Of a DNA stretch of 64,000 nucleotides, positions 2,763 through 49,497 are shown in pieces. Position numbers and translations under genes: made by a program. This DNA is from a virus (Duplodnaviria > Caudoviricetes), in the IMG/VR virus record IMGVR_UViG_3300021958_000045, positions 1-64,000 of that record; one strand, written 5' to 3'. Under the pieces are notes generated by a model. The model had not been told where the DNA came from. It saw only the letters and a list, made by a program, of their open reading frames with translations, and made no database searches. Numbering within the stretch: position 1 is the first letter of the stretch; each line of letters begins with the position of its first letter.

Positions 2763-2763
2763 A

Positions 2764-7634: not shown

Positions 7635-7636
7635 AA

Positions 7637-35000: not shown

Positions 35001-38000
35001 AACGAGCTATTAGAGCTTGATTCTTTTTCTCCGTAACTAATATAGCTATTATTAATAGTAGACTCAATTTTCTTTTCTTTTGCTTGAGAAGAGTCTTGTC
35101 TTTTAATTACAGACTGAGTATCGGCAGATTTATTGTATGAGTTAACCGATTTAGAATCACTTGCATTATCAATTTTTTGAGAAATCAAACCTTGAGACAA
35201 AGAAATAAATTCATCTTGCTTTGATAAATCTTTTTCTTGTTCTTGTACAATTTTTGATTCTACATTTTTATCTCTTGTTTGTAAGTTTATTTTTTCGCTC
35301 TGCTTGCCTAACGCATAACTTTGTTGAGTTACATTTCGATCAACTAATTTTGGTATTTTTTCTTGAGATAAGTTTTTATTAATTATAAAGTTTGGAACTA
35401 TACCAGAATAAAAATTTTGATTAGATTTATAATAATTTTCTAATTCTTCTCCTGACCTCATGTAGCCAGGAATTTTTTCATGAGCTTGCTGACCTTGAGC
35501 GGTTTGTTTTCCTTTAATTGCTGCGCCTCTTAAAGCATTTGCAGAAGGCATTGCTCGAAATCTATTCATAGTTGCTTGTTTATTGGTCGCCGCCTTTTGT
35601 TTGTCATACTTTTCGAAATCAGCCTTTTCTTTTGCAACCTGCCCAGATAGCAAACCTTGATAATCTAATTCTTTAAGTATTTTATCTGCCATGCTTGCTT
35701 TAATATCTCCAGACTGAGCATTAGCTTTAAAATCTCCTATAGAACCATGGCTAGAAGGCCAATTAAAAAACTTTCTCAACTGGTCTGTAGGACCTCTAAC
35801 ATCAAAGTCTCCTCCTCCTGCATTAACTGGAATATTACTAAAAGCAGCATTTGCTGCTGCCTCAAAAGCGTTGCCAGCCATAGCGGTCAATGTACCTTCA
35901 TTAAAATGTTTTTGTACAACTCTATCAATAATCGAAGAATCTTGCATTCTGATTTCTTGTTCGCCAAAAGCTCTAACAAAATTTTCAGAATGAGCTTTAA
36001 CTATAGTCTTAACATCTCTTTCTACAAGATCTCCAATTTTTGCTATCCTATCCGCCTCTTTTGGAATCTTGGGATTTATGCCTTTTGAATTCCAGCCGAC
36101 TAAAAATTGACTTTGGTACTTTTTTGCATAAGGGCCGCTACCTCTAACTGTAGACTGAGGAGCTCCTCCTCCTCTTTGAGGAAACAATAAAGAATAATCG
36201 TAAGTAGTAAATGGCCTCAAATCTATAACATTATCTGGGTCATCTTGATATGGTTTATTTTTTTGCCTACCCGCTTTGCCTGCTGCTGGCGCAAAATTAG
36301 GAATAATTCCATCATTAAAAATTTGCATAACCTCATGTTCGCGAGAGCTAATTTGTGATGTCTTGTTTTGATTCCATCCAATATCAGACTGAGGAACAAT
36401 AGACTGCATAGACCTACCATAAAAATCATATTCTTTTCTGCCATATTCCTTCTTATTAAATTGCATGAGGGCAGGATCATTTCTTCTTCCGCTAACATTT
36501 AAAAACAATCCTCCGACTTGCTCAGCCCATTTTTGTATTTGGCCAGAAGCCATAGCTTGTTTAAATTTTTCTACTTCAGGGTATATACCCTTCTTTGGAT
36601 TAGCTCCTCGATTTAACAACTTAAGAATTTTCTTTTTATTAAATACATTTTTCTCTGAAACCTGAGTAGAAAGTATATTATCTTTTGCGGGTTTATTTAA
36701 TCCCCCTCCAGCAAATTCTTTAGCTATTGTTTCTGAAGTACTGAATGATGTAGCCCCAGAAGGAGCGACATTGTCTAACTCTCCAATATCCCTGCGCCCA
36801 GAAAGCGGCCCACTAACATGAGACTTCACAAAATTCTGAATAATATTAATTACATCTTGAGGGGTTTGCGCTCCTTTAAAGCTTGGCATATTTTTACCAA
36901 TATTAGGTCTGTCTAGAGTTGGATTCTTTTGCCCTCTATACAAAGTTAAATTTGCATAATTTGGTACAGTTCCTGCGCTTACATTTTCCAACTGTCTAAT
37001 TTCAAATGGGTCAACGTTATAACCATAACCTCTAGAAAGATCAGGAAAATCTACTTTTAATTTTTCTTGTATATATTTATTTAACGATCTAAATTCTCTT
37101 GAATTAAAAAACTGTCTAAAATCTTCTTTTTGCGCTTCTGTCTTTGCCCTAAATAATCCATCCGCCCGAGACTCAGATTTTAGCCTTGTGTTTATTACTC
37201 CTCCCCTAGCCCCCATTGACATTAAATTAAACTCAGACAATGCCCTACTTATTTCAGCAAATTCTTCGTTTGAGTAATCTTTAATTTTTGATTTGCGCAG
37301 TGTATTTGGAGAGTACTTTCTGAAAATTGAAAAGTTTGGAACTGCACCGTATGCTAACTGAGGCGGCGAAGGTTCTGCCATTGGCGTTATTCCGCTAGCA
37401 TATGACTTAATTAAAGTTTGAAACTCTCTTGCTCTTTCTTTTCCTACTTTGGTATGAGATGGAGGTAACACCATTCCGCCGCTAGGTTTAAAAGGTAAGC
37501 TAAATGCTTTTTGTACATCTGCTCCTGTCGAATAAAACTTTTCTTTATTATTAACAACTACTCGCTCTTTCTTTCCATTAATCTCTAGTTTTTTAACTTG
37601 AGTATCTTTATATCCAACGTTTTGACCATATAACTGAGAAGCTTGACCAGCTTCTTTCATTCGGTCAGATTCAATACTAAAGTTGGGAATAAACCCAGTT
37701 GCTAAAGTTTCAGTTTCTTGCGAAGTAACATCTGAAATAGTTCCGCCTGCAAAACTCTTAGAGTCTGCAGAAGAACTGCTAGAACTGACACTTTTAGAAA
37801 CCATACCTTCTGCAAAAGTCTTGGAACTCGTAGAAGACTCGTCAACAGAAGTAAAACTATTTACATCTTCAGACCTCGAAGAATCCTTAAAGTTTTCTTT
37901 ATATAATTGAGTTTGATAATCAGAATCACGAACTCGGTCTTTTTGCCTTGTAAAATTTGGAACAATGCCATGGCTTGCTATTTTAACTGATTGAGGGTCA

Positions 38001-41000
38001 TTCTCATATTGTTTCCTGAGAGAAATTAATTCTTTTTCAGAGTAACCTTTTTTGATCAACATTTCAAGATCAGACTTTGGCCCCTTATTTTTAATATAAT
38101 TTTCTAAAAATAATTTATCATGCCAGCTTCTAGATGTAATTGTTTTACTCTTAAATCCATGTTTTGCTAGCATGTTTTGAGCGGCAGATCTCTCCCCATT
38201 AGTTGCACCTCTTTTTGCAAGCTCTCTAATTGCCTTAATGTTAACAAAGTTTGGGACTGTTTCTGGAGCAGTAACAGAGAAATTGGGTAAAACCAACTCT
38301 TCATTTGTATTGGTTCTTTTTTGTTGTTTGGCGAACATGTATTCATTAAACTCTTCTTCAAGAGAATTTAAATCTTGTGTTGATACAGTTTTTCCAGTTG
38401 GAGAAATAATTTTATCTTTTTGGACGGTGAATTTTTCCTGAAATAATCTTTGTATATCTTGATCTTCTTTTCTAATTGCCTCAGATTTAGCTTTATTAAA
38501 TTCTGTACTCTTTAATTGCTCTTGCTTCTTGAAAATTTCAGATTCAATTTGTTTAACTTTATCTGGGTTTTTGCCTGGGTTCGATGGTCGACTTAATTGG
38601 AATTTTTCTTTTTGAAGTGTTGTAATTTCTTTTTGTATTTTGTCATACTCAGTTTTATTAAATTTTTGCGCAAATTCCTTTGATTCGTATACTATGTCTC
38701 TTGAACCCTTACCTGTTGGGCCCATAAGTGGATTTGTAACCTTTGATAATTGAGATGTTAAACGATTTAAAATTTTAACGTCTTGAGGAATATTACTACC
38801 AACTCCATATGCATTACCAACAGAGAGATTTAATTTAGTTACTTTATCAGAAATGCTTTTATAATTTTTATTATGTATATTGTCTTTAATAAATTTATTA
38901 AATGCGGGCGAAGCGAAATTAGGTATATGCCCATCTGACATAATAGCTAGACCTTTCATCTCTGCAAACTCTTGATATAATTTACTTATTTGTTCTTCTG
39001 AAATTGACTCTGAACCACGAGCTTTCTTTACAAATTTTAATATATCTTCAGCACTGTCTACGTTTTTTGTAGTAAATTTTTCTGCGGATTTTGCGAGGGC
39101 TTTTTGGGTATCTGTAGAAGTAAAAATTGTTTTTGAAACATTATCAAAGCTATCAGGATTGTATAGTCTTTTTAGGTCCGCTCCAGTTTTACCCATTGGG
39201 AAGGACTGATAATCTTCTGCCTTAAGAGATTGCACGTCTTTTATATTTACCTGACTAGGAACCTCTTCCCTCTTATTCTTCCAAGAGGTTAGTCGATCAT
39301 AATTTCTATTGCCCGAAGAATTTTGGGCGACCTGAGTAGACTTAACTACGGCACCCATGATTTCAGGATAACCTTTTTGTGCAGCAAATTGGGCAAACTC
39401 TTGAAGCTTAACATCGGAATCAAAAGAAATCTTATCTTTAGTTAGTTTATTTTGAGGTTTATGCCCAGAGATGAAATGCATTTTAGGGTTCTTACCCCAC
39501 TGCTTAAACTTTGCATCAGGAAACTGCATCTTTGCAAGTTCCAAATCTTTTTCCATAACATACTCTTTACCACTCTTGGTTTGTTTAATATTAAACATTG
39601 ATGGAATTCTTGCAAAATTAGGAATTAATCCTTGAGAATAATTTTCTAACTGAGGAACTTCTCCAGAAGCTCTTCTCCTCAACATCTTACCTCTTGGCGT
39701 AAATTTATTTATTCTTTTTAAAATATCTTCCCGATGCTTCTTAAAGTATTCAATTCCTTCTTTTTTTGTTTTAAATTCTCCGCTAATTTGAGCTTCTTCT
39801 AAATGCTTTAATACAGAACCCATTTGAGGCCCTGGCTCTACTAATTTTTCTTGTATTAAATCTCGACCTTGTACAATTGGCTTAGGTGGCTCTTTGTATA
39901 TTCCGCTTTCTTTTGCAATTGAGCTCATTCTACTAATATTCTTTTCATCGACTTGAGTAAATTTTCTTGCAGTTACATCGTCAGATAAATTTTTGCCCAT
40001 GTCAGATTCAAGCAATATTTGAAACTTACTTAAGTCTCCTACATCCTTAGTTAACCTATTAATAGATTTCTGCGTCAAATTCTGAGGAAAATTTGAGTGA
40101 AACATATGTCTTTCAACAAAAGGCGTTAAGTCTTTAGATAATTTACTCGCTTCTCCTTGAGACATAATTCTACCCAAGAAACTTTTCATTGGCGCGACTC
40201 CAGCCTTTTCGTGACCGTAAGAAGTTATCGAGCCATCTTTGTTTATTTGTGTGTTTGTAACTTTGCCAAAATCATGCGTTAAAGCAGAAAACATCAATTT
40301 GCTTCTTTCTTTTTCTGGAAGCATTTGCCAATTTTTATTATTGGCCATTGCATTAGTTACAAGTTTTGTGTGATTAAATACATCTCCTTCGGGGTGATGC
40401 TTGGGAGACTGGGGAACTCCCTGCAATTTATCAATTTCAGGAAAATGCTTTATCCATCCAGACTCTTTTAGAAATTGCAAACCTTTTTCTGGATTGGTAG
40501 ATTTAGATGCCCATTTCATCCATTCTTCTCTAACTCTTTCTTTTGGAAGATCTTTAAATTGTCCAACCATTTCTCGAGAATAGTTGATCAATTCTTTATC
40601 TGCAGAAAGATTAAACCTTCCAGCCATCTGCATAGATCTTAATACCCTCAAAGGGTCTTCTTTAAATCTAGGAGACGTAGGCTTCATGATGCCGTCTTGT
40701 AAATCCTGCCTCCCTCCCAAGGGGTCAATAAATTTCTTTGTGAGAGGGTCGTAAGAAATAGAATTGATTGTTAAATCTCTTCTTTGTGCAGCTTCTTTGC
40801 GCCCCATATTAGGATCTACTTCAACCTCAAAACCTCTATGTCCAGCACCTACTTTCTTTTCTCTTCTTGGCATCGAGAACTCAAAATCTTGCCCCCCGCT
40901 TTTAGCTTTGAATACTCCAAAGTCTTTGCCAACTAAGCCTTCTTTAGTTAAAGATGGAGACAATATTTTTTGCAATTTTTCTTGTTCTAAACCAAAAACC

Positions 41001-44000
41001 TCAACATCCCAATCTTTAGGAAATTTGCCCATTAAAAAGTCTCGAGGAGCTCCGCCTACAATCTGAGCACTACCTCCAGCAGCTTGAATTTCTTTTGATA
41101 CTTTTTCAAGATATCTGGGGACGGGCATAGTTTCTGCCGCAAAGTTAGGGACAAGGTCTCTTTGTGTATTTTCTGGTTGAGCAAAGTTGGGAACCAAACC
41201 TTCAGCATTTCCACTACCTCTTCCAGAATGCTGGCCACTAAATTGATAATGAGTTCCAGTTATATTTTCATTTCTAAGGTTACGAATAGCTTCTATATTT
41301 TCAATTGCGTCATCGATCAGATCGTACTTACCCCCTTGCTTTTTCCAAATTCTCTCTAATAGAATCGCTTTCTTTTCTGCAGGCTTTAAATTCCTATAAC
41401 CAGGAACCCTTCCTCCTTTTGCTTTAATTATTTTTCCAGAACCATCGCTAGCAATTTTAATATTATTAAACATATCTGCGGTGGTCATAATCTTTTCAGG
41501 ATTAATTCCCCATTTTTTTAATTTTTCTTCAATAAATGGCACAGACTGTTTTGCTCGAGCAGTTAAGACAGTGACCGCTTGACCCTGAAGTTCTTTTGCT
41601 AACGGGGTAGGTTTAGCCAATCCTGCAGATTCAGCTTGAAACAAATCTTTAGACTTTACATTCTTAGAATAAGTGCCTAGTGTTTCGTCAAAATCATAAA
41701 ATTTTCTAAAGCCTGCGTTTCTTTTGAGGGCAAAGTTGGGAACGAGTCCTTCAGATAATTTTGATACAGTTCTCTCTAATGTGCCAGCATCTTTTGTAAA
41801 ATTAGGAACAGCTCCTTCTGAATATTTTTTTAGAGATTTGCCTGGAGCTTGTTTTTTCTGACTCTCTTGAAGCTTGACAATCTTTTGCCAAATTTGGTTT
41901 GCTTCGCCATTTAACTGGCTAATCTTTGGATCTATTTCAGCTCTGGGCCTCCCAGATTGAGACAGTTGCTTTGCTTGTCCTAGTTTGCCCTGCCACATCT
42001 TTAAAAGCCTTGATCGATCTGACTGCATATCAACAGGCTTAATAAAATTAGGCACTGCTTCTTGAGAATTTAAATAACTAGCGTAATTGGGAACAACTCC
42101 TTCTGAATATTTCTTAGCAGACTTGCTAGATATTTGTTTCTTTTGTTTCTCTTGGAGGCCGACAATCCTTTGCCAGATTTGATTTGCTTCGCCATTTAGT
42201 TGACTAATCTTGGGATCTATTTCGGCTCTAGGTTTTCCAGATTGAGACAGTTGCTTTGCTTGTTCCAGTTTACCTTGCCACATCTTTAAAAGCCTTGGTC
42301 GATCAGACTGCATGTCTACAGGTTTAATAAAATTAGGAACTACTCCCTCAGAATAAAAGCCTGCCTTTTCATCTCTATTAAAATTCTTATCCCCCTTTTT
42401 TAATATTTTTGTATATGCATCCATGGCAAAATATTCGCCAGATGCAGTTCCACTTAAAATGGAATTTTTTGTATTAAACCCTAAATTTGCTTCTGACCAA
42501 CTATTAAATGACTCTATACCATTTTCTTTAACCCATTTACTAACTTTAGTTTTTAAAGATTTAATATTTTTAAATTCGATTTCATCATTTCCAATCTGAA
42601 AAGTTCCCGAGGTTGACATTCCTGGCTTGATTCTTTGTTTTAATTGTGGGAATGCATTGATTATGGTTTCCCAAGGAGTTTTGCCTGAAGAAGCACGAAT
42701 TTGGTCAAAGGTACTGTGAATCTCTTTATTTTTCCATCTTCTTTTTCCTGTAAAGCCTGCGATTTTATCAAAATTTCTATTAGCTCCCCCCTTCATAGAA
42801 GGATCGTTTACATCTGCTCCTTTAGCTCTTTCTGAATATAAAATGTCAGTCTTGTTTTCGTAATCGTACTCTCCCTTGCCATAAGTAAATCTAGTTGTTG
42901 TTCCAGTTTTTTTATCAGTTACTTGTATAATGGGTAATTGACCATTCCATTCATTAGTAGTCTTCATACCGTCGAACCCTTTAATATCTTTTTGGGCTCT
43001 TGCAAGATTTTTCTCTCTAATTTTTTTAAGTAATTCTGGCTTGCCCCAAGTAGACACAAAATTTGGTATACTTTTAGCAGCATCTGGAATTATTCCTTGT
43101 GCAGCCCTCTTTTTACCACCAGCAGCAATAGCTTTACCTCGTCCAGCTACTGTTCCAGCGGCAGCCTTCTTTTGCTTTTCAAAATCTTTATATTGTTTTA
43201 ATTTTTGATAACCTCCCCTAGAATCAATAATTTTTTTAATTCCACTGCCAATATTTTTCTTGCTTGATGAAACTTTAGCATCTACATTTTTGCCTTTTCT
43301 TGAATCTAAATTAAATGCAGTTGTTAAGTTTTTTTGAAATTCAGGACCAGGAAAATCCCATCCAGCGGTTCCAGGATCGTTTTTTACAACTGAATTTTTA
43401 ATATAATTTAAAGTTGCTTCAAATACCCTTCCTGTGAATTGAGGGCCTGCAGACTTATCCAAGTAATCGCTTAATGGGCCAGAACCTTTAACCTTTCCTC
43501 TTGGCATAATATCTCTAGCTACATCTCCTATGGCAGAAGTCATATGCTTATCAACAATACTATGGAAGCTTGAGCCTTGTGATTGAGCCAGTCTACCGAT
43601 AGTGAAGTTTCGTGCTTCAAATTTTGTGCCTTTAAAAGCTGGAGGAACTGCGCCATCAAACACTGAAGATGCTGCTACAGTTTGATTTTTTCCTGTTTCT
43701 GATTTGCCCGCTTCTGCTGTTATAATACCCTGTCCAGCTGCATTTAATTTAATTACCTGATTGTTGGTTGCTTTAAAATTTGGTACATAACCAGTAGAGT
43801 AAAAGCTTTTGGTTCCATAGTCAGCGGCAGAATAAAATTTTTCAATACCATTGTCATAATTGAATCTTTGCATCATATCTTGATTTAATATTGCAGATGC
43901 GCCTGAACCCATAAAGTTTTCAACAATTACTTCATCTGTATTTGCAACGATATCTTGCTTTTGAGTTTTTGTTTTTTGAAAGTTTTTAATTAATACAGGG

Positions 44001-45775
44001 GAAGCAGATTTAGAAGCTCCCCCAACTCTACGATTTATGTCTCTTTGTTCTGCAGCAAAAGAAGGAATAAATTTTGAATCAGTATTTGCAGGAACATAAC
44101 CTTTTGACATGCCAAGATCTTTGCGTCCCGCTGCAGCTCTAGGACCTCGGCCATAAGGAACTACAGTGCCTTGATTACTTACTGCAACGTTGGCTAACGT
44201 AGACGACGAAGCGATTTTTTTTAAGAGCGCATCTTGCGCTATTCGTTCGGTCGTTTGTTTTTTTAAGACGCTGAGTATTGCCTGCTCTTTTGCCACTTGG
44301 CTTGTAGAGTCGCTTAGAATTTTCTGTCGAACCCCCTCTTCGCTCATTAAAATTTGAAGAATTGCAGCTTGCAAACCCTCTTGACGTTTAGTTTCACTGT
44401 TGATTGAAAAGATTGACTTCAATGCGCTCGCACCTTGTTGAGCGACGAATGCAAATAATTTAATAAATGCCCCACCAATTAAAACCATGCCAGGACCACT
44501 GATGAAACTACCAATACCTTTTAATAAAGTCTTGCCAATATTAGTGCCACTATCTTCTCCTACTAAATTATTTATTCCGTCAGCCAGAGTCTTAACTGTT
44601 TCTAATACTTTTTCAATGCCAGGACCCAAAGTCATTTCTCCAAAATTGGCAGCCAACTCTTTTATAGATAATCCTGTTTGACTAAGTAGAGCAGACATAG
44701 TTTTATTCAACTCTTCATTTCTTTGGGTGGCTTCATTAGTACTATTGTTTGCAGTTTTAAGAGCTTGATCGTATATACTAAATTCGCTATTTAAGTCTTT
44801 AATTAAAGCTTTAAGGTTATTAACCTGAAACACTCCAGCAATTAATTCATCAGTTGCGGCTTTTTGAGCATCGCTTAAAGTATCGTAACCTTTTGCATAA
44901 TCTTGAAGCACTGCCATGCCAGAACGAAATGCCCCAGTTGCATCTTGCGTTGCAACACCGATTTCTTCTAAAGCTTCTCTTACGCTAGATCTCTGCAATC
45001 TTGTAAATATACTTTTAAATGAGTTTCCTATTACTGCTCCACCTCTAGCTGTTTGCTGTTGAACACTAGTAACAGCAGCAAGAAGTTCATTAAATTGCAC
45101 TTTTGCAGATTGTGCAGTTGCTCCAGCTCTTGCTAAACCATCTGCTAAATCTTTAGAAGATACTGCAAAGGCTGCATCAACATTAGCCAATCTATTGACA
45201 ATATCTGAAGAATTTATAGCTGCATCATTAAAACCATTTATGGCTGCCGTAAGAGCATTTACAGCCTCCACAGAATCCATGCCAGACAATCTTGTTAACG
45301 TCATTGCATCAGCAATACGCTGAAGGGTTTCGTCAGCACTTAAACCTTGTCTAGCAAACTCTGTTGCGGCAGCGGCTATATCTTGAAAAGATGATGCAGT
45401 ATCTCTTGCAACATCAAATAAAGCTCCTCCAAAATTTTGTAAAGCAGACTCAGACATATTCATAATAACATTAACGTCTTTTAATGCTTTTTGAACTTCT
45501 ATGGCTGATTGAGCCATTGCTTTTAATGCATCAGAAACTCCATTAATAACGGAAACTGCAGCACCAAACGCAAATACACGAGCGACAGCAGCGTCCATGG
45601 ATTTTTCAAATTCTCCCATTTGGCCAGTAATTCTACCAAGAGGCTGGACGAGTCCTTTTTCATTCAATTGCAATTTAATGGGCTGAATTTTCTTTTCGCC
45701 CATTTTGGCTTGATTAGCAATATCTTGATCAAGACCTACTGCTTTAACTCTTACTCTAATATTTTCTTGTGCCAT
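14087..45775 (-). CDS. Giant tail tape measure protein (10,562 aa) with embedded enzyme domains
   Basis: Single uninterrupted 31.7-kb ORF located after the tail tube and chaperone-position genes. The N-terminal Ala-rich region (AATEFARQG...LTRLSGMD...LANVDAAFAVSSKDLADGLARAG...GNSFKSIF) is typical of TP901-family TMP cores. Confidence 0.9.
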   Translation of the reverse strand: MAQENIRVRVKAVGLDQDIANQAKMGEKKIQPIKLQLNEKGLVQPLGRITGQMGEFEKSMDAAVARVFAFGAAVSVINGVSDALKAMAQSAIEVQKALKDVNVIMNMSESALQNFGGALFDVARDTASSFQDIAAAATEFARQGLSADETLQRIADAMTLTRLSGMDSVEAVNALTAAINGFNDAAINSSDIVNRLANVDAAFAVSSKDLADGLARAGATAQSAKVQFNELLAAVTSVQQQTARGGAVIGNSFKSIFTRLQRSSVREALEEIGVATQDATGAFRSGMAVLQDYAKGYDTLSDAQKAATDELIAGVFQVNNLKALIKDLNSEFSIYDQALKTANNSTNEATQRNEELNKTMSALLSQTGLSIKELAANFGEMTLGPGIEKVLETVKTLADGINNLVGEDSGTNIGKTLLKGIGSFISGPGMVLIGGAFIKLFAFVAQQGASALKSIFSINSETKRQEGLQAAILQILMSEEGVRQKILSDSTSQVAKEQAILSVLKKQTTERIAQDALLKKIASSSTLANVAVSNQGTVVPYGRGPRAAAGRKDLGMSKGYVPANTDSKFIPSFAAEQRDINRRVGGASKSASPVLIKNFQKTKTQKQDIVANTDEVIVENFMGSGASAILNQDMMQRFNYDNGIEKFYSAADYGTKSFYSTGYVPNFKATNNQVIKLNAAGQGIITAEAGKSETGKNQTVAASSVFDGAVPPAFKGTKFEARNFTIGRLAQSQGSSFHSIVDKHMTSAIGDVARDIMPRGKVKGSGPLSDYLDKSAGPQFTGRVFEATLNYIKNSVVKNDPGTAGWDFPGPEFQKNLTTAFNLDSRKGKNVDAKVSSSKKNIGSGIKKIIDSRGGYQKLKQYKDFEKQKKAAAGTVAGRGKAIAAGGKKRAAQGIIPDAAKSIPNFVSTWGKPELLKKIREKNLARAQKDIKGFDGMKTTNEWNGQLPIIQVTDKKTGTTTRFTYGKGEYDYENKTDILYSERAKGADVNDPSMKGGANRNFDKIAGFTGKRRWKNKEIHSTFDQIRASSGKTPWETIINAFPQLKQRIKPGMSTSGTFQIGNDEIEFKNIKSLKTKVSKWVKENGIESFNSWSEANLGFNTKNSILSGTASGEYFAMDAYTKILKKGDKNFNRDEKAGFYSEGVVPNFIKPVDMQSDRPRLLKMWQGKLEQAKQLSQSGKPRAEIDPKISQLNGEANQIWQRIVGLQEKQKKQISSKSAKKYSEGVVPNYASYLNSQEAVPNFIKPVDMQSDRSRLLKMWQGKLGQAKQLSQSGRPRAEIDPKISQLNGEANQIWQKIVKLQESQKKQAPGKSLKKYSEGAVPNFTKDAGTLERTVSKLSEGLVPNFALKRNAGFRKFYDFDETLGTYSKNVKSKDLFQAESAGLAKPTPLAKELQGQAVTVLTARAKQSVPFIEEKLKKWGINPEKIMTTADMFNNIKIASDGSGKIIKAKGGRVPGYRNLKPAEKKAILLERIWKKQGGKYDLIDDAIENIEAIRNLRNENITGTHYQFSGQHSGRGSGNAEGLVPNFAQPENTQRDLVPNFAAETMPVPRYLEKVSKEIQAAGGSAQIVGGAPRDFLMGKFPKDWDVEVFGLEQEKLQKILSPSLTKEGLVGKDFGVFKAKSGGQDFEFSMPRREKKVGAGHRGFEVEVDPNMGRKEAAQRRDLTINSISYDPLTKKFIDPLGGRQDLQDGIMKPTSPRFKEDPLRVLRSMQMAGRFNLSADKELINYSREMVGQFKDLPKERVREEWMKWASKSTNPEKGLQFLKESGWIKHFPEIDKLQGVPQSPKHHPEGDVFNHTKLVTNAMANNKNWQMLPEKERSKLMFSALTHDFGKVTNTQINKDGSITSYGHEKAGVAPMKSFLGRIMSQGEASKLSKDLTPFVERHMFHSNFPQNLTQKSINRLTKDVGDLSKFQILLESDMGKNLSDDVTARKFTQVDEKNISRMSSIAKESGIYKEPPKPIVQGRDLIQEKLVEPGPQMGSVLKHLEEAQISGEFKTKKEGIEYFKKHREDILKRINKFTPRGKMLRRRASGEVPQLENYSQGLIPNFARIPSMFNIKQTKSGKEYVMEKDLELAKMQFPDAKFKQWGKNPKMHFISGHKPQNKLTKDKISFDSDVKLQEFAQFAAQKGYPEIMGAVVKSTQVAQNSSGNRNYDRLTSWKNKREEVPSQVNIKDVQSLKAEDYQSFPMGKTGADLKRLYNPDSFDNVSKTIFTSTDTQKALAKSAEKFTTKNVDSAEDILKFVKKARGSESISEEQISKLYQEFAEMKGLAIMSDGHIPNFASPAFNKFIKDNIHNKNYKSISDKVTKLNLSVGNAYGVGSNIPQDVKILNRLTSQLSKVTNPLMGPTGKGSRDIVYESKEFAQKFNKTEYDKIQKEITTLQKEKFQLSRPSNPGKNPDKVKQIESEIFKKQEQLKSTEFNKAKSEAIRKEDQDIQRLFQEKFTVQKDKIISPTGKTVSTQDLNSLEEEFNEYMFAKQQKRTNTNEELVLPNFSVTAPETVPNFVNIKAIRELAKRGATNGERSAAQNMLAKHGFKSKTITSRSWHDKLFLENYIKNKGPKSDLEMLIKKGYSEKELISLRKQYENDPQSVKIASHGIVPNFTRQKDRVRDSDYQTQLYKENFKDSSRSEDVNSFTSVDESSTSSKTFAEGMVSKSVSSSSSSADSKSFAGGTISDVTSQETETLATGFIPNFSIESDRMKEAGQASQLYGQNVGYKDTQVKKLEINGKKERVVVNNKEKFYSTGADVQKAFSLPFKPSGGMVLPPSHTKVGKERAREFQTLIKSYASGITPMAEPSPPQLAYGAVPNFSIFRKYSPNTLRKSKIKDYSNEEFAEISRALSEFNLMSMGARGGVINTRLKSESRADGLFRAKTEAQKEDFRQFFNSREFRSLNKYIQEKLKVDFPDLSRGYGYNVDPFEIRQLENVSAGTVPNYANLTLYRGQKNPTLDRPNIGKNMPSFKGAQTPQDVINIIQNFVKSHVSGPLSGRRDIGELDNVAPSGATSFSTSETIAKEFAGGGLNKPAKDNILSTQVSEKNVFNKKKILKLLNRGANPKKGIYPEVEKFKQAMASGQIQKWAEQVGGLFLNVSGRRNDPALMQFNKKEYGRKEYDFYGRSMQSIVPQSDIGWNQNKTSQISSREHEVMQIFNDGIIPNFAPAAGKAGRQKNKPYQDDPDNVIDLRPFTTYDYSLLFPQRGGGAPQSTVRGSGPYAKKYQSQFLVGWNSKGINPKIPKEADRIAKIGDLVERDVKTIVKAHSENFVRAFGEQEIRMQDSSIIDRVVQKHFNEGTLTAMAGNAFEAAANAAFSNIPVNAGGGDFDVRGPTDQLRKFFNWPSSHGSIGDFKANAQSGDIKASMADKILKELDYQGLLSGQVAKEKADFEKYDKQKAATNKQATMNRFRAMPSANALRGAAIKGKQTAQGQQAHEKIPGYMRSGEELENYYKSNQNFYSGIVPNFIINKNLSQEKIPKLVDRNVTQQSYALGKQSEKINLQTRDKNVESKIVQEQEKDLSKQDEFISLSQGLISQKIDNASDSKSVNSYNKSADTQSVIKRQDSSQAKEKKIESTINNSYISYGEKESSSNSSFAESIKSKQSDFINGFQSFSQGMVSKDVSTDSKSFSQGMVSKDVSTDSKSSSQGMVSKDVSTDSKSSSQGMVSKDNQQASSEVFSQGFSLESNKVSSNSTNQENRVFGREDNFSTLYRLRDNFQENESSTKENVLNRRKESIEKRKNKQVIQKYFQGYTPEKQKPSDREFKYLKNDNKEKDSKTEIIESIYSQGKEISKERLSNGYVPNFALNVNSASRGNDALGAAIKRESQAGIPMHKIRIGQSNRLKNESNPGGVGVYNTIDEPRGLGQGISRSISQGINPQKHGLVANGYVPHSTFSVPNFIGRFIPKMFKRGGSKAADAAIPTPTGGGMFGGGGGMMNTIFMGQMMFGGIEGQTGTAGGYAADAAGDALQIAAITSMITDKKKWVALAASVGALNGVLDQYSKSLKVQGDQIERNIQINGKAIESATQVVSAQSRLNSAIEGGDPENITKAIKSLQKQIESFPSGSSAIDDLRSALVTANGDVQKMSTALEKFSASALKVNQLGQLTIKAQAANENREGVLPFGFGPTQLPDFVPFFGGEKGELKDEARGEIRNIGMQSVQGLELAEEQVTSLSKKLSKINFEEFSAEDIRSTIKEFSSTLDEETRTLFDQIVDNIPDEGMVDFTVGIKEQLKLRKESIEAGKAVGKTSSALGNLKSTIVNLSTAVSRSISELNSNITKAFDIAEKQFNSELSIMTGMNYMTPNEARSAQEEFSVTRINAETAAGTEFEVSKFVNQLMKDTKMEDFEGEDGSVFSGKLADVLNKMYLKSSELEQGDGRFMADDIVSAIERIDFDERTQEEQELIDSVRQLNEKANQQIALLKLGNEIAAREDLLQARKNLESTQLDVTAREGEIMEQFAFGQSFEPETQLDLDVQARATQDMVGLMEGLFGKSPELNDMRQQANMQNAIGNVNRILMMLGVETETGFDAKADANIDMGDVVNSMKKALVEQDLPDGTQKMVSYMIKQLTAQQGALASTPSDRSELTRKTLQSTAEALNIDLEELGLDPRTMGFNDLTSIADQLGDNGVEIRLLSSIDEGIQTLSKTLQPEQGISAEEIVKAIRNIKVADTEKVEQRTKASKQQDEARQKIQNIAIDGANVNIGGSTKINTSGNITIHGGANSTEPPQPAPSRGGVPNFARNSSTRDRKKSPIRGLKESLNEDKLKESRGFEQFAGKTFTGGRALQVANYYPGAIDSIYREVEALEKKGITNALNNVQLTIPASSNSLANFQYQGAVVTNTVDEGNVTPRSYLNKIENVHDLSPRDSEFSMTGMIDNSSSQTQAISTVRRSSQNASANQIANNYSIANQKSSWKSARAQSSIGDTYNAGAALRVANYYPEAKETIQKEIKTLKDRGVKNPINEIQFTVPDQELSEIGPKSIIDSVITNRVDDGSVAESNYLTKIQNTHKTGLRIQKQKEFISPSAEQRAENLVKNEKILRNNLHQNIISKRKDSQKTKEQEVYSESVWGETTYAPKQTMAQKLAGKTFTGGAALRVAKYWPGASESISREITALENKGVMDPISNIQLTVPGGKSQYFSSYDGPVVTNKIDEGGVAPTNYINKIRGVHKLGPQEGAFASHGTLDEDVDDKTKFMRGYLERNPYVPNFAAPQKGARRIINTARALGEDMDIWDLEPESIKPSAVANWNSSGAALLKQVHGLQGNSQGGLSKLQRAFIEEMRKEENQQIFSKIGVENFDFDQAKFMDPEIGEPQIFRPMVIEYMGGNKDGQVVPVEEATKAKPRDFQSGKYIISQIDSTNPDIDELELFTGEENRAIRQAVANQDADSEETMRRQRAAKATQRAVERGGPKARSDAGPNVRATKTLGDSAPKVGTLTEAAKQNMKGLESHIIPKDLADDIRSQEAITARAAENATEQASKEIGKSAEGGFVRQAGTWLKRQLQTLRILTGRSTEQKQGINPVKEEEILSQIENEGVRTYSGDTPTNPLETNEDVKSILAEKVDGEVDTGADRVHKQKENYLQRERSVTEKIQRAIQANRIRKNRQKKQRQRQKELEQKARRTLEEQKAQQRQEEIERVRKIQEAEIDKGLGRTRTSMAIGEGSEFKDVLTYNNPELRELSSWDKIKKTALKFVGRYKGSEIEEVERQNNIVRTQQMQDLASGENIASEETTFSKLQKLSNERSVTTSTSATSESLFQRPASTPRNPWTTSVVSHRSQKSPVVEMAEELIEQRAMNISGSVSPIKDAPEESKKQSILRQVIGGSTSPEGVDGLFSLRAETIDPPLLERIRRAKSQLFPEHGNVSFRQAGIVPSKSPSTVLSDFDILASDGTLIGTMDSTGIIHPPTVETKPVIYDANGRAVGAQKVAGVQTAQAQLQLAPANTGELAVSASQADVLNQAQVSKISNKLKSGSDLSVEEMNVLQQWANNNPDLVNSIETGQENKTLLLENADVKSRASRLTDKQFEISKVTSAAKAENQIDELINNPEFVDRATRTMPGDPIHLQRMFDNIDSRKSVPLPPTETALDKVKTNSNINRRANELQKQLVLREIRQKAPLELQKRLRLPANFNEADLNKKFLSEKQRLQQLIDNPNIPSNKRGIIEEDLRILTRNKNEHLNALDPKLMERQDLFINRQFKELIADAGLSVFTGGGAEGVSKLDVTNQAMAKKLGPAAFDLDGDFVKLREEISKVLFLDPENTAGFDKNLAESLVDRELRVIGLDSQGKGFGLGDRMRENLINLDRFVGMGMGEDFLRQAKTQNLHKSDINVARLVSFMDLMDPAGNKLDGKAIENLKKGGIDKIFQKIQKGELFSQTAIRGKTVPMIPKDPEAVLNNLKNADLASQVNASRILENEGKLSSLAASKGNGIVNPASLELAAQELEAGRQPLSTSDVGEDGIDLTKTRMTAEELASLQSTMDSLDGDLDQKAPDQRLSTLSQSLDPENTIETSRNIIAEKQQQLINDRLVEKAEFDRLTSLGNAATQEDLQRMSELLQIDNLRVSQGRSSNFDRENVTRANNQLASFNQQSVRTASNEVGVKLTKREDSPVRSRRSEEAIEELDALEEAKADPVEQAAAVRETGAETEAKVREVASVDDNIVQQTIEEVEEVDDNWKKSKEEYLADPEKAATSERLLEKGKAHKRLIDYLVETKGWKNTMQAGKGIWNGVSSIVPIAGSAKDWTAEKWGTVRERISAWRAEQAKKHPEGIAKQMAEENHRAEQSRKAEAKLAMEMNIGSKPIAFDTSESLTQTFKQTEKFNRSQSGWTEYEDKVLDQLTGRMRVEQNGKDIITYDPKLSPYVGSKDIKEAHALRRSLNPKDHMMKRITAGENIKFLKAGEVMKKVNQGTTAVKGALLDKQISAPKSLTSSNVFQRRLIESETSGKHINVPEEFSKTITRKGNDYRALDLDKVAEGLRESTRVVDYQEPDGSIKTYSVDEFEKKRSEAFSNIQKRAELSSRSISETSTSELGDFKKESISEKIRMEQEKFMRGVLPGDIDGNPGRYTLTKEGSLLRAKEINRQANAVNLQRAGQAFDSAMNYGGGPLRGATVGTLLPAAGILAFQTETGMSVLDSAANMIGSEPKHFVLEKQVRNKDNVSVGTGNYLSTAGTDLIQQQKTLLNKKKQAGLLDAPEEASWHDKALTKIGLKQMAESKVEGDKNATELARKNIAAKIARRNLEGLAGGEEGIPGLSEYTMASQDNLEDARAQPMFFESREAATQYAHENNLSGYSAKGLGDNSEERAFLRSYGKGFAQGKVGEGNDLAESVGLSQFTGSEVAGVLSANLADAAIVGTRARMGTSTAAAMTKGAALKTAARRFAGVTAAEFFVARGEKARMDYSGMEGHLRAGGNYALGFGTGLAFESKNPLLGFAVGAPLGAAAYTARVGLGDYLNFDPDEINNTKYAMSSEELLERQKEIINLAKSKAESARQLLDKYYLGSFVNKGKRLGVDYSSKEAFHTFYDQAERDRYYQLAIEQGEIMRSAYRLAEQMDTRILANRDLYQAGTLQKNEKPNEKLVKHNYTADAVSKILSDTVTLFDPNLVTDLKEQTKMEKEGFTQKQILEKLNSKDFTSTKINEKGEEYVYQPNTEELVNLRQQKSRTYLKGLERVHDFNARQGLLRSSTDYAGASSLEETMEIGKMPEKEFLKEKISWDPDSNLGKIKDRRAQIFYKDGKKITDYDEWMKEMDRGSLDYGKLTYPYEMAQVLGIDTVDHRDTNRRIPMLKVQARIKEQFQNFRTTGRIEKKPAQAVDKILQGMGIASQGGDNSKETKINNFILGKQDDGWNVQYDEATKSTIMKHEKHGLVSFPGMGDVNNERSFERLYEKHMQDLTKSRYEEPMQSYYKAQKNFASGEQTPATRKAFEQSQAERVKNTRGISDADPSREYGRPGYGEENYNKSKFKTFEEFDEKIPKEQRIYLSAMSALLKRGEEAQYQSKDMQGQDVEYYEALADLQADEVMHAQFNKALIERNMGVQASKTQITEAGYSMQKGLGYGTQVDAINKDFESAEVGSANILKLGSLNPEDINGYVSRFQGGLESKREEDIKLRKRVSEREAEMSVIDKKLTSNISQKERDHLTAERGEIVKSLSETKLKRANLKPFLTAPDKVAQGMQLRKNSQTQFESTINRLSKQLGIDEEISLDRKVGSLYNHFSKNPLYTGKSNIEDSKKSAPGDVSKNVLEQKDRWMLREEAIQMMVARNRRLRLEKKKLEKASPGSQIIQQKTFNDDDEFELRRTMNIFADGRSSATKKSTSKQFQKDLDEWHSSRDTKSSYASIIRDQETYSELLKKKGLYLRTGEEDSIAGQAILEGKIGNQSYRGTYFRDLFDSVMTRGSNQGESFNGLLDQKKQAMQDWELVKGLPEMLPYTATMESAYRKGMGLDTKNDDLLGAIPYEEIQKSKQKLNNQLMTAGYSMNWWRDKDVSTRTEDWNKLLIENFRKPVKEDLLKSGGARLAGGIIDEADGTVRAQKDFANVLDEDGNIIQSADERAADALVQNIKKDFKLFDVNQDGIITPDEINLLDDRFDPAKFNPEEGIGYNESARKIAGTRRGTLTPEIFRALTTKFDGSGLGDGPDGGLSRAEIFQNDGSGNDKNKSIVQDRVRDFLKNKYVKQVSPYGESLKEGLNSYFYGGTEGGVRAVEIWKELAMLDKNSIPEASREDFSKAQSEAMKLIQNVGLHRSIISKGQKLDQRSQDRYGDLFKQKMDLQLSPEDIKNYRHLETELGSDKWKGKEHLPAYREMQETMNAYRERRDKVSFINNEFNQGSTKEGMLAGRAFSLPNFLINQGLINEGDSKAGEPWAPAAIGDDWQNYSDRYFRGISSVAQAMDSSTAEKVAKDLGINIKTGGQGGWAGEPDTIFETEKDPQDITNQITGYDEAALDRQFGAQFKEVDTARRLSEEKEFINKYSNQNAMSVMANEMGNLSSNASAKVAGITGRGGDDNTNLTNPFGKSKEIAASWRERETSIQEKHKEGLEKMVSNAKERKISRESFTDVRDPLKFIQQYSKDYNERKGFLWNKVDNAKGAYDQKVATGADAETKALALQRYKEAIQEELFHRQMAYPDSTMNDVLNRKNYLDIQNTDWKLGPAYQDWYDSYAGEKIMLKTGEGVDIPVSDKQDAAKKLLQARGDEMRAVMMQRGWMTEDGEYAKRIGDNAITPEKINELLVDTHPGNKYVYKAGEKIDRLQNIWSEKFGGKFTKGALSLFGNESAKFVLNATGAPGDLTDTSSASEQGGGFVVSRERRDAGLKAQQALQPEVVGRFNILDPNEKLMMAISKSAQNGFKGGGPEDFTSIYQGMSLSGRESFKRKYKEAIEQKVPPSIVSQLNNYISNVDKNDLYATAKGEGVPDYLKRKIDSRTPLTRGERDELREYKKREMVARRIVGEKRRSSGISRAAGQMMDRLGTSEPLARFISSAGSSAVLQYRFMNETDGNIKKLEDLDIQGQGATKINGSYIRTEKDRKRKLESLARKRIAHFNNFKKIISNHPEAKHNILFDSVNPRGFRANPEMASISENIIRRPVISELSDEEKKAALRLNIDVADKLVRTDSNGVPIIQEESRKTMSRLEGTGPFDVIAKTNKLEGLEETFDLDLVQQAAANASQDIRTMQKQADKVREQKSKISYDEAYDLNKDGRLSPEELSRKKMLEDFAKQNQAKASKAKVNNSALGFQPKKSKPFASSRTAASSPGKANLHQAYSEVKQSVLASYKKPVTADQVGIANLRTGTGRYEKRIVNAQEKIFSHGGVDFVAPPKNSSVSRKYAEDVQDEFGIDPYDKKIQNAAQGFVPNRGQSSRAEKNPIPGINKLNVNIDSLSKTLSKTKFDSPDVDLAEAWTKSDTGKQDGRQWEELSQSLRSMYTKNYEDNKMSKAWSQSSTGKKDGRDWMSLGDEEKQMYKQKFDDFQTKKLSSSESSRQSQISQASYMPDQSSDSKSNIALTGAVQGLTKGVADVKVGLSKASEVEVKASEIDEVGQPKMIQDTITSSDVSTLMEKVTSHFLNQQGQRFETGENDKSTGEVLNDSIEPVISAIEKIKESIKQQMIDKDKQATLEKEKESVQRGDERKQLASNDVLAKAWAESNTGKQDGREWNDLKQGERDMYSENYKENKMSEAWKKSFTGQQDGRNWSELGDNEKKMYSERYESNQKPVQSLENKELTEKLAKPAPLNKSEHDVIAAQQKAQLDQQKQTRGAELDLENFFNQGSPQAVISADAGESTRANPLAQAETDNPEMESLLNNLVTAFDAFITQLADVKFDTPAEPIIKETEVPDQIDVKPDLNADKQMFEENAKAKGHEISDLYSQSTNPFDVQSNVETAELNTVTPEAPPIENPGLINEVFNPPTPEVDSQSAGLNMQLPEGIEEALKIKMPDEMPNLTMDYSPLINAVDKLQEVISNASSMQLLPPEQESLTLMVPEGLQESLTLSMPDATETTVSVDASALNEAVASLQEAIASASGLTQTIETKIDTSGTLNINADTAGLRNAVEPALNQMQQQIMQSTQTFISSKIAQAMNEILKMLPTSS
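15230..16162 (-). repeat. Two pairs of ~32-aa AWxxSxTGxxDGRxWxxL...MY repeats near the TMP C-terminus
   Basis: Pairs at about 15955-16162 and 15230-15441, seen directly in the translation. Confidence 0.9.
16727..16762 (-). other. EF-hand-like Ca-binding loop within the TMP
   Basis: DLNKDGRLSPEE fits the 12-residue EF-hand consensus. Confidence 0.55.
20090..20125 (-). other. EF-hand-like Ca-binding loop within the TMP
   Basis: DVNQDGIITPDE fits the 12-residue EF-hand consensus and is preceded by FKLF. Confidence 0.55.
30285..31480 (-). repeat. Three dispersed copies of an ~85-aa module within the TMP
   Basis: ALxVAxYxPxAxxxIxxExxxLxxxG...TxP...VxTNxxD[ED]GxV...YxxKIxxxH at about 31200-31480, 30765-31020 and 30285-30550. 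Confidence 0.9.
34781..34953 (-). repeat. 48-nt tandem repeat, about 3.6 copies, encoding S[FS]SQGMVSKDVSTDSK
   Basis: Unit cttagagaccatgccttgagaggaacttttggaatcggtagacacatc starts at 34781, 34829, 34877 and 34925. Confidence 0.95.
35600..36290 (-). other. PD-(D/E)xK-like nuclease domain 2 within the TMP
   Basis: GNAFE (35861-35875), DFD (35801-35809) and DFK (35726-35734); same pattern as domain 1. Confidence 0.5.
36315..36950 (-). other. Mono-ADP-ribosyltransferase domain (R-S-E clade) within the TMP
   Basis: LYRG (36932-36943), TSFSTS (36734-36751) and EHE (ExE, 36332-36340), in the canonical order. Confidence 0.8.
39720..41128 (-). other. cca: Class II CCA-adding tRNA nucleotidyltransferase with HD phosphatase domain, within the TMP
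   Basis: VGGAPRD..DWDVE, VGKDFGVF, GAGHRGF loop, EAAQRRDLTIN, DPLGG, EDPLRVLR, ERVREE, followed by HD motifs HHPEGDVFNH...THDFGK...GHE. Same motif order as E. coli Cca. Confidence 0.93.
41240..41725 (-). other. HAD-superfamily phosphatase domain within the TMP
   Basis: All four HAD motifs in order: DFDETL (DxDxT, 41681-41695), VLTAR, a Lys motif (AEKKAIL), and LIDDAIEN (41308-41320). Confidence 0.85.
41826..42340 (-). repeat. In-frame direct duplication of an ~75-aa helical module (period 285 nt)
   Basis: PNFIKPVDMQSDR.RLLKMWQGKL.QAKQLSQSG.PRAEIDPKISQLNGEANQIWQ occurs twice; matching DNA anchors at 42329 and 42044. Confidence 0.95.
43200..43770 (-). other. PD-(D/E)xK-like nuclease domain 1 within the TMP
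   Basis: GRVFE (43418-43432), WDF (43352-43360) and VDAK (43274-43282) match the E...D...[DE]xK order of the restriction-endonuclease fold. Flanked by PNF motifs. Confidence 0.5.
44700..45600 (-). other. Core tape-measure (PhageMin_Tail/TP901-like) domain within the TMP
   Basis: Characteristic TMP core residues as above; boundaries approximate. Confidence 0.8.
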
Positions 45776-48630: not shown

Positions 48631-49482
48631 TCAATAAGAAAGACCATTTAATATTTTTTCTAAATGATTTATATTTGTAATATAAGATTTATAAGAAAAC
48701 GTTGCTTCAAGAAATTCATGTATCGAACCGCTTTGACTATAGTCCATAAGTTTTGCATCTTTCATAAAAAAACTTCGAATAGCATCCCCACTTTCACAAT
48801 CTTGAAAAATTAAAGATAAATCTTGTATTTCTGGCGCGCAAATAAAATCAAATAAATTTTTAGACTCATAATCGTCTACATGAAGAACGAATTGACAATC
48901 CACCTGTATTGGAAATTCAGTTCTAAAATCTATAGGCTCTAATGATCCTAATTTAAAAATAGGTTCTCTATCAACGTTAATTTGAAAATTAAAAGATTGA
49001 ATTCTATTTGTTGAGTGACCAGCAACATTCAACAATATACTTCTTGGAGAAGCAATCATAATAGATGAATCTCTTTCTGGGGTTTGGCTTAAAAATATAT
49101 CTGTATCTCCTCCAGAATTACCATAACATAATAAAGAAAAATTTAAACTAGGAATACCTCCTATAGCACATTCGCAGCTATAATTTGTAATTTGTGCTCG
49201 AGAAAAAATAAAATTTTTTCCATTTGTATATAGATTTTCTCCATAGATATCTGTACTTTTAAATAATTCAACCAATGGATCTGTCGAAGAAACCATGAAT
49301 CTCTCTATATCACAAGTAGCAGTCATTGGTTGTTCTACCACGCCTCCCAAAAAACCTCCATCTCTGCCTACTGCATTTACATAAGTTTCTTCTGCGGACC
49401 ATGCCACTTGGCAGCTTTGAACCCCTCTTATTCTTTCTTTATTTATATATAAATCTTGAGTATCATGCTTATGCCCTCTCAT
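48631..49482 (-). CDS. Tail-tube-like paralog
   Basis: IQSFNFQINVDREPIFKLGS aligns with the tube segment IQSFTLDVPMSRTPLNRIGS. The track's GTG start at 49497 is part of the upstream GTGTA motif, so the ATG at 49482 is preferred. Confidence 0.55.
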   Translation of the reverse strand: MRGHKHDTQDLYINKERIRGVQSCQVAWSAEETYVNAVGRDGGFLGGVVEQPMTATCDIERFMVSSTDPLVELFKSTDIYGENLYTNGKNFIFSRAQITNYSCECAIGGIPSLNFSLLCYGNSGGDTDIFLSQTPERDSSIMIASPRSILLNVAGHSTNRIQSFNFQINVDREPIFKLGSLEPIDFRTEFPIQVDCQFVLHVDDYESKNLFDFICAPEIQDLSLIFQDCESGDAIRSFFMKDAKLMDYSQSGSIHEFLEATFSYKSYITNINHLEKILNGLSY

Positions 49483-49492
49483 AAACAATATA

Positions 49493-49497
49493 TACAC
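49493..49497 (-). promoter_or_regulatory. GTGTA motif upstream of the 49482 gene
   Basis: 10 nt before the ATG, immediately after the tube terminator. Confidence 0.55.

Follow-up and report, generated by a model that had tools for sequence, protein, structure and literature searches.

Can a tailed phage build a complete tRNA-repair enzyme into its tape measure protein (TMP), and would such an enzyme then reach the next host cell with the virion? The question is raised by a stretch of 64,000 nucleotides (hereafter the window), which forms the first 64 kb of the 80-kb IMG/VR virus record IMGVR_UViG_3300021958_000045 (G000; completeness ~57%). An earlier note on this DNA had described a complete CCA-adding enzyme with an HD domain inside a structural tail protein, which is encoded by a giant minus-strand open reading frame (ORF). 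The locus as we find it is laid out in Table 1. The enzyme, here called the Cca-HD cassette, is best explained as a catalytically competent enzyme captured from a free-standing gene and now residing as an exchangeable cassette in the TMPs of marine and estuarine tailed phages.

Table 1. Window coordinates of the giant ORF and of the features in and around its Cca-HD cassette.
Feature	Position	Strand	Basis or remark
Giant modular TMP ORF, holding the Cca cassette	14087..45775	-	10,562 codons, stop-free across 31.7 kb
N-terminal tape measure core, aa 79-411	44543..45541	-	TIGR01760, PF10145, tblastn
Two upstream linker motifs, GLVPNFA and DLVPNFA	41141..41191 (41141-41149; 41183-41191)	-	motif map
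Folded Cca-HD cassette (head, neck, HD/body, tail), giant aa ~1548-2038	39662..41134	-	AlphaFold2, Foldseek, dN/dS
Nucleotidyltransferase head, motifs A and B, flexible loop	40685..41062	-	PF01743 9e-20
HD phosphohydrolase domain, H286...H326-D327...H347...H382...D417 (P0001)	40001..40396	-	Salmonella Cca alignment
tRNA nucleotidyltransferase domain 2 (C-terminal tail)	39749..39883	-	PF13735 1e-07, 32.5 bits vs cut-off 27
Downstream linker motif GLIPNFA, ending the cassette	39614..39622	-	motif map

When the cassette is aligned with Salmonella Cca and E. coli PcnB, no class II nucleotidyltransferase motif is missing and all stand in order, namely GGxxRD, DxD, VGKDFGVF, the flexible loop, RRDLTIN, and then motifs C, D and E of the neck (DPLGGRQDL, EDPLRVLR and ERVREE), followed by the HD set (HHPEGD..H, HDFGK, GHE, and a further H and D). 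Residues of these motifs are numbered on P0001, the translation of window 39602-41251 in the frame of the giant; in the numbering of the giant itself the Cca domain spans residues ~1546-2054, with profile matches at ~1550-2020. The best NCBIfam model for the cassette is NF008137, 'multifunctional CCA addition/repair protein' (1.6e-52, 178.7 bits); besides the Pfam domains in Table 1, PF12627 is matched, and PF01966 (HD) weakly so (E 0.007). The relationship to the enterobacterial enzyme is close in architecture: cassette and Salmonella Cca agree in the head-neck-HD-C-terminal order, in the nucleotidyltransferase motifs, in the loop and in the HD metal ligands. They differ in that Salmonella Cca, 30% identical, is a free enzyme of 413 residues with 6 cysteines, whereas the cassette is internal, Cys-free and extended by the PF13735 tail. 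With E. coli PcnB the cassette shares the class II head and neck fold and the catalytic carboxylates, but PcnB has no HD domain, has a flexible loop that is 8 residues longer and unrelated, and reads VGRRFRLAHV where the cassette has VGKDFGVF and Salmonella Cca VGRDFPVF. The cassette loop, PRREKKVGAGHRGF, which follows the pattern PRRExKxGxGHxGF, matches that of Salmonella Cca, ARTERKSGSGYTGF, and those of homologues that are the sole nucleotidyltransferase of their genome, and the spacing from DxD to RRD is 72 residues (family mode 69-73).

These comparisons uphold what the earlier note had read from the sequence, that is, a full set of class II motifs with an intact HD domain, collinearity with Cca, and a VGKDFGVF segment of Cca rather than poly(A) polymerase type. 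Its linker motifs with PNF at their core, placed on either side of the enzyme at 41141 and 39614, lie exactly there, and a further one lies upstream. The limits it gave the cassette, 39720-41128, locate it correctly, whereas the C-terminal limit falls short: in the structural model the fold runs ~58 nt further, to ~39662.

Conservation extends to the individual catalytic positions. Neither 88 homologues nor the nine copies from giant proteins vary at residues G66, G67, R70, D71, D80, D82, R157, R158 and D159, and the HD residues H286, H294, H326-D327, H347, H382 and D417 are conserved over the same set. All 30 of the family-invariant positions examined are intact in each of the nine giant-protein copies, which are 54-94% identical overall. 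The identification of the cassette as a complete, Cca-like class II tRNA nucleotidyltransferase with an HD domain is thus well supported by sequence comparison.

An AlphaFold2 model of P0001, built on the 88 homologues, has a mean pLDDT (predicted local distance difference test score) of 89.2 and a pTM (predicted template modelling score) of 0.86. Confidence is high from residue ~40 to ~530 (window ~39662-41134) and falls below a pLDDT of 50 at residues 1-32 and 535-550. Searched with Foldseek, the model aligns over its full length (460-540 columns, E values from 3.5e-15 to 1e-11) with the CCA-adding enzymes 9kma, 6qxn, 1miv, 5hc9 and 8cbm; further matches are 3WFO-3WFS, the 4WB*/4WC2 'tRNA processing enzyme' series, and 3AQK-3AQM, deposited as Poly(A) polymerase. 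The cassette is thus confidently predicted to have the head-neck-body-tail fold of class II CCA-adding enzymes. The tail region matched by PF13735 is helical in the model, with high pLDDT, and corresponds to the tRNA elbow-binding region of solved relatives.

The ORF in which this enzyme lies begins, to judge from profile and tblastn matches, with a bona fide tape measure core of TP901 type. TIGR01760 (tape_meas_TP901 core) scores 129.7 bits on giant residues 79-411 against a cut-off of 28.8, and PF10145 (PhageMin_Tail) matches the N-terminus at 2.1e-28 (100 bits, cut-off 33.2). With the first 600 residues of the giant as query, tblastn matched 223 phage records, and the best of the matches listed are annotated TMPs of large siphoviruses (Bacillus phage Tsamsa, Lactococcus phage 949) at 26-27% identity. 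The cassette is in frame with this core, confirming its predicted location inside a structural tail protein. The frame also stays open in relatives, giving ORFs of 10,437 aa in G001 and ~8,166 aa in G007.

The fusion was found in at least five diverged marine or estuarine lineages. G001, a second IMG/VR record, has the same layout as G000. P0059 (7,702 aa) emerged when 1.84 billion representative proteins were searched exhaustively and without profiles; its N-terminus is 53% identical to the tape measure core, and its residues 1296-1810, which are 55% identical to the Cca cassette, have PNF motifs on either side. L107 (at least 5,375 aa, with Cca at 1533-2042 and 20 PNF motifs) and L108/L109 (at least 5,178 aa) came from scanning JGI metagenomes, and P0060, P0006 and L110 are further members. 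PNF linkers and Cca occur together in P0059, L107, L108/L109 and P0060, four of which also have the TMP N-terminus. The stretch is in addition contained in the Logan assemblies of metagenomes, estuarine and marine, that stem from several different studies and years, and in two of these runs (X4, X5) contigs free of differences bridge both junctions of the cassette. By the evidence of these records the fusion of Cca and tape measure is real and recurrent, and defines a clade.

Between G000 and G001 the cassette is the best-conserved part of the giant, with 96-98% amino-acid identity as compared with 25-60% in the C-terminal half. The Nei-Gojobori ratio of nonsynonymous to synonymous substitution rates (dN/dS) for the same pair is 0.039 at a dS of 0.51, the transferase and HD halves being similar, which points to strong purifying selection on the cassette. 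Separately, the head-neck half of Cca (window ~40370-41125, minus strand) has a G000-G001 dS of 0.35, against 1.4-1.75 in the flanking cassettes; this low value may reflect either a recent exchange of the cassette between lineages or an extra constraint at the RNA or DNA level.

When the G000 protein was cut at its PNF motifs and the pieces were searched in relatives, Cca proved to be the sole cargo cassette present in every Cca-bearing relative (54-94% identity). The others are patchy, and in L107 the shared cassettes stand in a different order. G007 (L103-L105) has a tape measure core 76-78% identical to that of G000, and its ORF aligns with giant residues 1-1080 and then from ~2507 on, so that Cca and its neighbours (window ~38250-42530) are absent; since this relative does without it, Cca is an accessory module. 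Taken together, the alignments indicate that ORF length shifts by thousands of residues among relatives through gain and loss of linker-bounded units.

Two observations on neighbouring units may be added. The cassette directly upstream of Cca (window 41183-41731, minus strand; giant residues 1349-1531) contains a DFDET motif and is HAD-like; it adjoins Cca in G001 (94% identity), L107 (46%) and P0060 (38%), and is absent from P0059 and L109. In L110 a Cys-free upstream ORF (1-1284), homologous to internal cassettes of P0059 and L109, stops 25 nt before a 2,627-aa ORF (1309-9189) that carries Cca and has an AAA_33 kinase domain at its N-terminus; the interruption is either a split gene or a sequencing error.

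In an IQ-TREE phylogeny of 55 Cca domains the nine giant-protein copies form one clade (SH-aLRT, the Shimodaira-Hasegawa-like approximate likelihood ratio test, 100), set off by a long stem branch (0.79 substitutions per site). The nearest rows in the tree are free metagenomic proteins of ~450 aa, among them P0092, which lies among small unannotated ORFs on a phage-like contig; the pairing of P0072 and P0092 as sister group, obtained with FastTree, was lost in the IQ-TREE subset. The earlier note had hoped that the phylogeny would identify the donor and, through it, the host. This did not hold: identity to even the nearest cellular relatives is 36-43%, these relatives are scattered over Verrucomicrobiota, Acidobacteriota, Zetaproteobacteria and Planctomycetota, and IQ-TREE did not resolve the sister group.

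The linkers themselves are a conspicuous feature of the giants. In the G000 ORF PN[FY] occurs 24 times as against 0.8 expected from composition, and 23 of these sites lie within window 30170-43783 (minus strand). Across four giants (G000, G001, P0059 and P0060) 66 copies define the consensus [AS]-x-G-x-[VI]-P-N-F-[AS], which is nearly absent from the other ORFs of the genome. The three motifs around Cca fall in or at the edge of low-pLDDT linkers, outside the Cca fold, the second upstream one (P0001 residues 35-37) standing just past the segment with a pLDDT below 50. Their codons vary synonymously, so the linker is conserved as a peptide and not as a DNA repeat; a role as a DNA-level recombination repeat was discarded for the same reason. 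A cleavage site and a handling signal are both candidate functions.

Equally conspicuous is the lack of cysteine. The G000 giant has none in 10,562 residues, whereas the 22 other proteins of the window have 109 in 9,369 (1.16%); at their frequency ~123 would be expected, and the log10 probability of finding none is -53.7. The relatives behave alike: 2 cysteines in the 10,437 residues of the G001 giant, none in the 7,702 of P0059 or the 3,779 of P0060, and 0 or 1 in each of the L107, L109 and L110 ORFs, the one in L107 preceding the likely start codon. For comparison, the TMP of phage Tsamsa has 1 in 3,123 and the part read of that of phage 949 has 0 in 3,071. Since the neighbours of these two TMPs do contain cysteine, its avoidance looks like a property of such TMPs, and it may be a general signature of proteins that pass through a phage tail. 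The cassette has followed suit. All nine embedded Cca copies are Cys-free, as against 6 of 175 free or cellular homologues, whose median is 6; where Cca is fused into other large proteins, the median is 1. Beside the HD dyad the cassette has Thr where the family consensus and Salmonella Cca have Cys. This loss of cysteine is the strongest sign in the sequences that cassette and tape measure meet the same physical fate, as opposed to the cassette being a cytoplasmic enzyme that is translated in this frame by coincidence.

These observations lead to the reading that we favour, to which we give even chances: the Cca-HD cassette is cargo of a modular, Cys-free TMP and, once a new cell is infected, acts there to repair the 3' ends of tRNA. 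The TP901-type core and a central glycine-rich hydrophobic segment would serve tail assembly, exit from the tail and passage of the membrane, and the cassettes between them, separated by disordered [AS]xGx[VI]PNF linkers, would ride along. After ejection the Cca-HD cassette, freed at its linkers or still tethered, would refold in the host. There its HD domain would strip 2',3'-cyclic or 2'/3'-phosphates from tRNA 3' ends and its transferase would restore the missing C, C and A, so that the tRNA pool would stay chargeable in the face of nucleases and toxins acting on the acceptor end, before any phage gene is expressed. The evidence suggests that the enzyme travels with the virion rather than being made after infection; we infer incorporation of the whole protein into the virion, its translocation and refolding, tRNA as the substrate, and the timing. 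Plausible targets of the repair are toxins acting on the acceptor end; MenT and others of this kind are members of a protein family of abortive infection (PMC10435456). By analogy, precedent for delivery is offered by more distant Cca-HD domains in MuF and ART-PolyVal proteins and by TMP-related effectors ejected by a contractile system.

Several points weigh against this reading. No ligase, kinase or 2H partner was recognised in the giant by profile and motif searches, the HAD-like cassette beside Cca has no significant Pfam or PDB sequence match (best DUF2608, E 0.1), and the records G000 and G001, which are incomplete, yielded no phage tRNA genes. A folded enzyme of ~55 kDa and seahorse shape exceeds the ~4-nm lumen of a tail, so storage in unfolded form or in the capsid has to be assumed. 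There are 3-6 tape measure copies in a virion, which would deliver few enzyme molecules to a cell with ~10^5 tRNAs, and the host possesses a Cca of its own. As to specificity, the cassette does not reach the equivalog cut-off of NF008137 (451 bits), and its HD/body half, C-terminal to the head and neck, is closest in PDB sequence to the 3WFO-3WFS series, of which 3WFR is listed as a CC-adding enzyme (PMC4810234).

The alternative that survives best is a late polyprotein, cut at the PNF linkers in the producing cell, with nothing but its tape measure parts entering the tail. Once freed, Cca-HD would act, undelivered, in a cell that is already infected, for example in the upkeep of tRNA during late protein synthesis. 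The 24 regularly placed linker motifs in disordered segments suit this alternative, as do the small tail lumen and the few TMP copies in each virion, and gain and loss of cassettes that alter ORF length by more than 2,000 aa are hard to fit with a whole chain acting as a strict ruler. Free-standing phage cca genes are, moreover, common: 469 phage records match, many of them annotated as tRNA nucleotidyltransferase. Such a polyprotein, however, gives no evident reason why the embedded Cca should be Cys-free like long TMPs when its free homologues have a median of 6 cysteines. Profile searches recognised no protease in the giant ORF or among its neighbours, late expression is odd timing for a repair enzyme directed against host defence, and the related Cca domains fused to MuF head proteins point to packaging. 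We regard the polyprotein as unlikely, though far from negligible.

A further alternative keeps the domain active but changes what it does: it might add only CC or only A, act in the manner of a poly(A) polymerase or of a CCACCA-type tagger by which host RNAs are marked for decay, or work on the end of a phage RNA or DNA. The missed equivalog cut-off and the resemblance of the C-terminal half to 3WFO-3WFS can be read in this way, and the long stem branch of the clade leaves room for a functional shift. In 4 of 5 genomes checked there is no PF01743 gene besides the nearest cellular homologue, and with NF008137 this sole gene gives 177.9 bits in an Opitutales genome and 183.5 bits in one of Akkermansia. 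Since these sole cellular genes score like the cassette, its shortfall reflects distance from the enterobacteria and not loss of features, and on the same grounds (sole gene, equal score) the nearest homologues should be the housekeeping CCA-adding enzymes of their bacteria. The cassette loop has the length and pattern that are seen in Salmonella Cca and in the enzymes that serve Opitutales and Akkermansia as sole nucleotidyltransferase; Neuenfeldt and colleagues reportedly found in 2008 that addition of A76 requires this loop and that CC-adding enzymes have it deleted. Conservation also covers the EDxxR nucleotide template and the tRNA-binding domain at the C-terminus. The PcnB models TIGR01942 and NF008634 score 98.3 and 62.7 bits on the cassette, well below NF008137, and with a different signature and loop and an HD domain that PcnB lacks, an identity as PcnB was rejected. 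Because the loop and motifs of the housekeeping homologues are kept and PcnB scores are low, the most likely activity is full CCA addition, joined to repair by an HD domain like that of E. coli Cca. We infer full CCA specificity rather than assert it, because of the kinship of the C-terminal half with 3WFO-3WFS and the listing of 3WFR as CC-adding; a changed specificity or substrate we consider improbable.

That the fusion is non-functional (a chimeric assembly, read-through across separate genes, or a remnant in decay that serves only as spacer) is very improbable indeed, for although the ORF is more than three times as long as the longest TMP among the isolated-phage matches checked (3,123 aa, Tsamsa) and L110 has a stop between two cassette-bearing ORFs, the same in-frame layout recurs in four IMG/VR records, several JGI/ENA contigs and Logan assemblies from different studies and years, dN/dS is 0.04, and the catalytic residues are intact in nine of nine copies.

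Separate expression of the cassette from an internal start was considered and set aside: no Shine-Dalgarno sequence precedes M1550 (Met at 41126-41128), and promoter-like sites are fewer than in shuffled sequence. One RNA-library run (X24) yielded short contigs on the cassette, one of them near-identical, but DNA was possibly present in the library, and these contigs are no proof of transcription.

Delivery by the virion, the reading to which we gave even chances, may be compared with what is known of related systems. CCA-adding enzymes are on record among the RNA-repair genes of jumbo phages, as free cca genes only (PMC7824862). Free phage genes such as those of Vibrio phage eugene 12A10, Tunturiibacter phage Tunturi_5 and the uncultured gut phage MT835871 belong to the same enzyme family; they differ in encoding proteins of ~420-480 aa, 26-34% identical to the cassette, that stand among non-structural genes and are made after infection. 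The polyvalent proteins of phages and conjugative elements (Iyer et al. 2017, PMC5512222) resemble the giant in build, as huge single polypeptides encoded among virion genes; they unite many unrelated enzymatic domains, as the giant may do. They and MuF-fused enzymes are read as effectors that enter the cell by injection together with the DNA, and the polyvalent proteins may be cut up after delivery. Their carrier is a head protein, whereas here it is a TMP with PNF linkers between the cassettes. The same paper makes no mention of a CCA-adding domain or of TMPs, and its Pol-beta nucleotidyltransferases are of another kind and reported only from conjugative elements. A TMP-related modular effector is packaged and ejected by an actinobacterial contractile injection system (PMC13277306). 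Like the giant, such Sle1-type effectors have a tape-measure-derived platform with an exchangeable domain; they are packaged in a tail-like tube and ejected, as is proposed for the giant. They differ in having one C-terminal module and in belonging to bacterial nanomachines, as against ~20 linker-delimited segments in a true phage TMP, with an RNA-repair enzyme as the cargo considered here.

The Cca-HD domain recurs in other large proteins. A search limited to long proteins found more than 50, of 964-2,750 aa, with a Cca-HD domain 33-41% identical to the cassette. By Pfam, P0012 combines MuF, 2H/Acb1-like, RadC and Cca-HD; P0013 DUF4314, ART-PolyVal, WGR, RNA/DNA ligase and Cca-HD; P0009 Cca-HD, AAA_33 kinase and DUF192; and P0016 MuF and Cca-HD. 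As these domains form at least three clades of the IQ-TREE phylogeny, apart from the tape measure clade, Cca was captured more than once into large virion-associated proteins. The 2017 survey of polyvalent proteins does not contain this RNA-repair-like set of domains, and the fusions of Cca-HD to MuF, ART, RNA ligase, 2H and kinase widen the polyvalent-protein catalogue towards RNA repair. In the searchable literature we found nothing relevant that joins a TMP to a CCA-adding enzyme, or a CCA-adding enzyme to MuF. Phage cca genes, TMPs with lytic domains and injected polyvalent proteins were each known separately; of a complete tRNA-repair enzyme built into a TMP the searchable literature gives no description.

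On the minus strand the gene order runs from the large subunit of terminase (59506-61371) through large and mid-sized ORFs of no recognisable family to a weak tail tube or minor tail match (48631-49497; phrog_290, and PF18906 at 5.5e-05, below its cut-off), three small ORFs, the giant ORF and five large ORFs. By this order the giant appears to occupy the usual slot of a tape measure gene, among neighbours that are mostly of no recognisable family: PHROGs and Pfam searches of 20 neighbouring proteins recognised only the terminase, an ERCC4-type nuclease and the weak tail match. The nuclease is an odd neighbour for a terminase; its ORF (61368-62348, minus strand) overlaps the terminase gene and matches the ERCC4-type PHROG at 8e-10.

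Within the giant, nothing beyond the tape measure core, Cca-HD and EF-hand motifs was recognised by general profile searches, although the other cassettes too are conserved units bounded by linkers. When the giants were searched for Walker A, ligase KxDG and 2H HxT motifs, matches were chance-like only, and the RNA ligase family PF09414 was not found in the 80-kb record, which is 57% complete. After the last cluster of cassettes comes a hydrophobic stretch rich in glycine and methionine (window ~33900-34010, minus strand; giant residues ~3925-3950), followed by a segment of ~800 aa that is conserved in relatives and has no family match. The hydrophobic stretch resembles the membrane-active glycine-zipper segments of ordinary TMPs; a second, 'true' tape measure part may begin here.

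A broader picture can be drawn, tentatively and with the odds against it, for this group of marine tailed phages. The TMP would be a Cys-free conveyor of 8,000-10,500 residues that threads ~20 changeable cassettes into the host ahead of the DNA, with [AS]xGx[VI]PNF as its handling or cleavage signal and Cca-HD, kept by nearly all, as a pre-loaded counter-defence. If this is true, virion delivery of an RNA-repair activity would become known for the first time, with Cca-HD. Delivery would also imply that large enzymes can pass through a tail, probably unfolded, with the absence of cysteine as a testable signature, and that host attacks on the tRNA acceptor end are common enough at sea to justify a pre-loaded antidote. 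The family is a natural set of linker-bounded cassettes with a candidate processing motif, usable in the search for other virion-delivered effectors, and the fusion, conserved across lineages, offers a directly testable case of RNA repair delivered by the virion.

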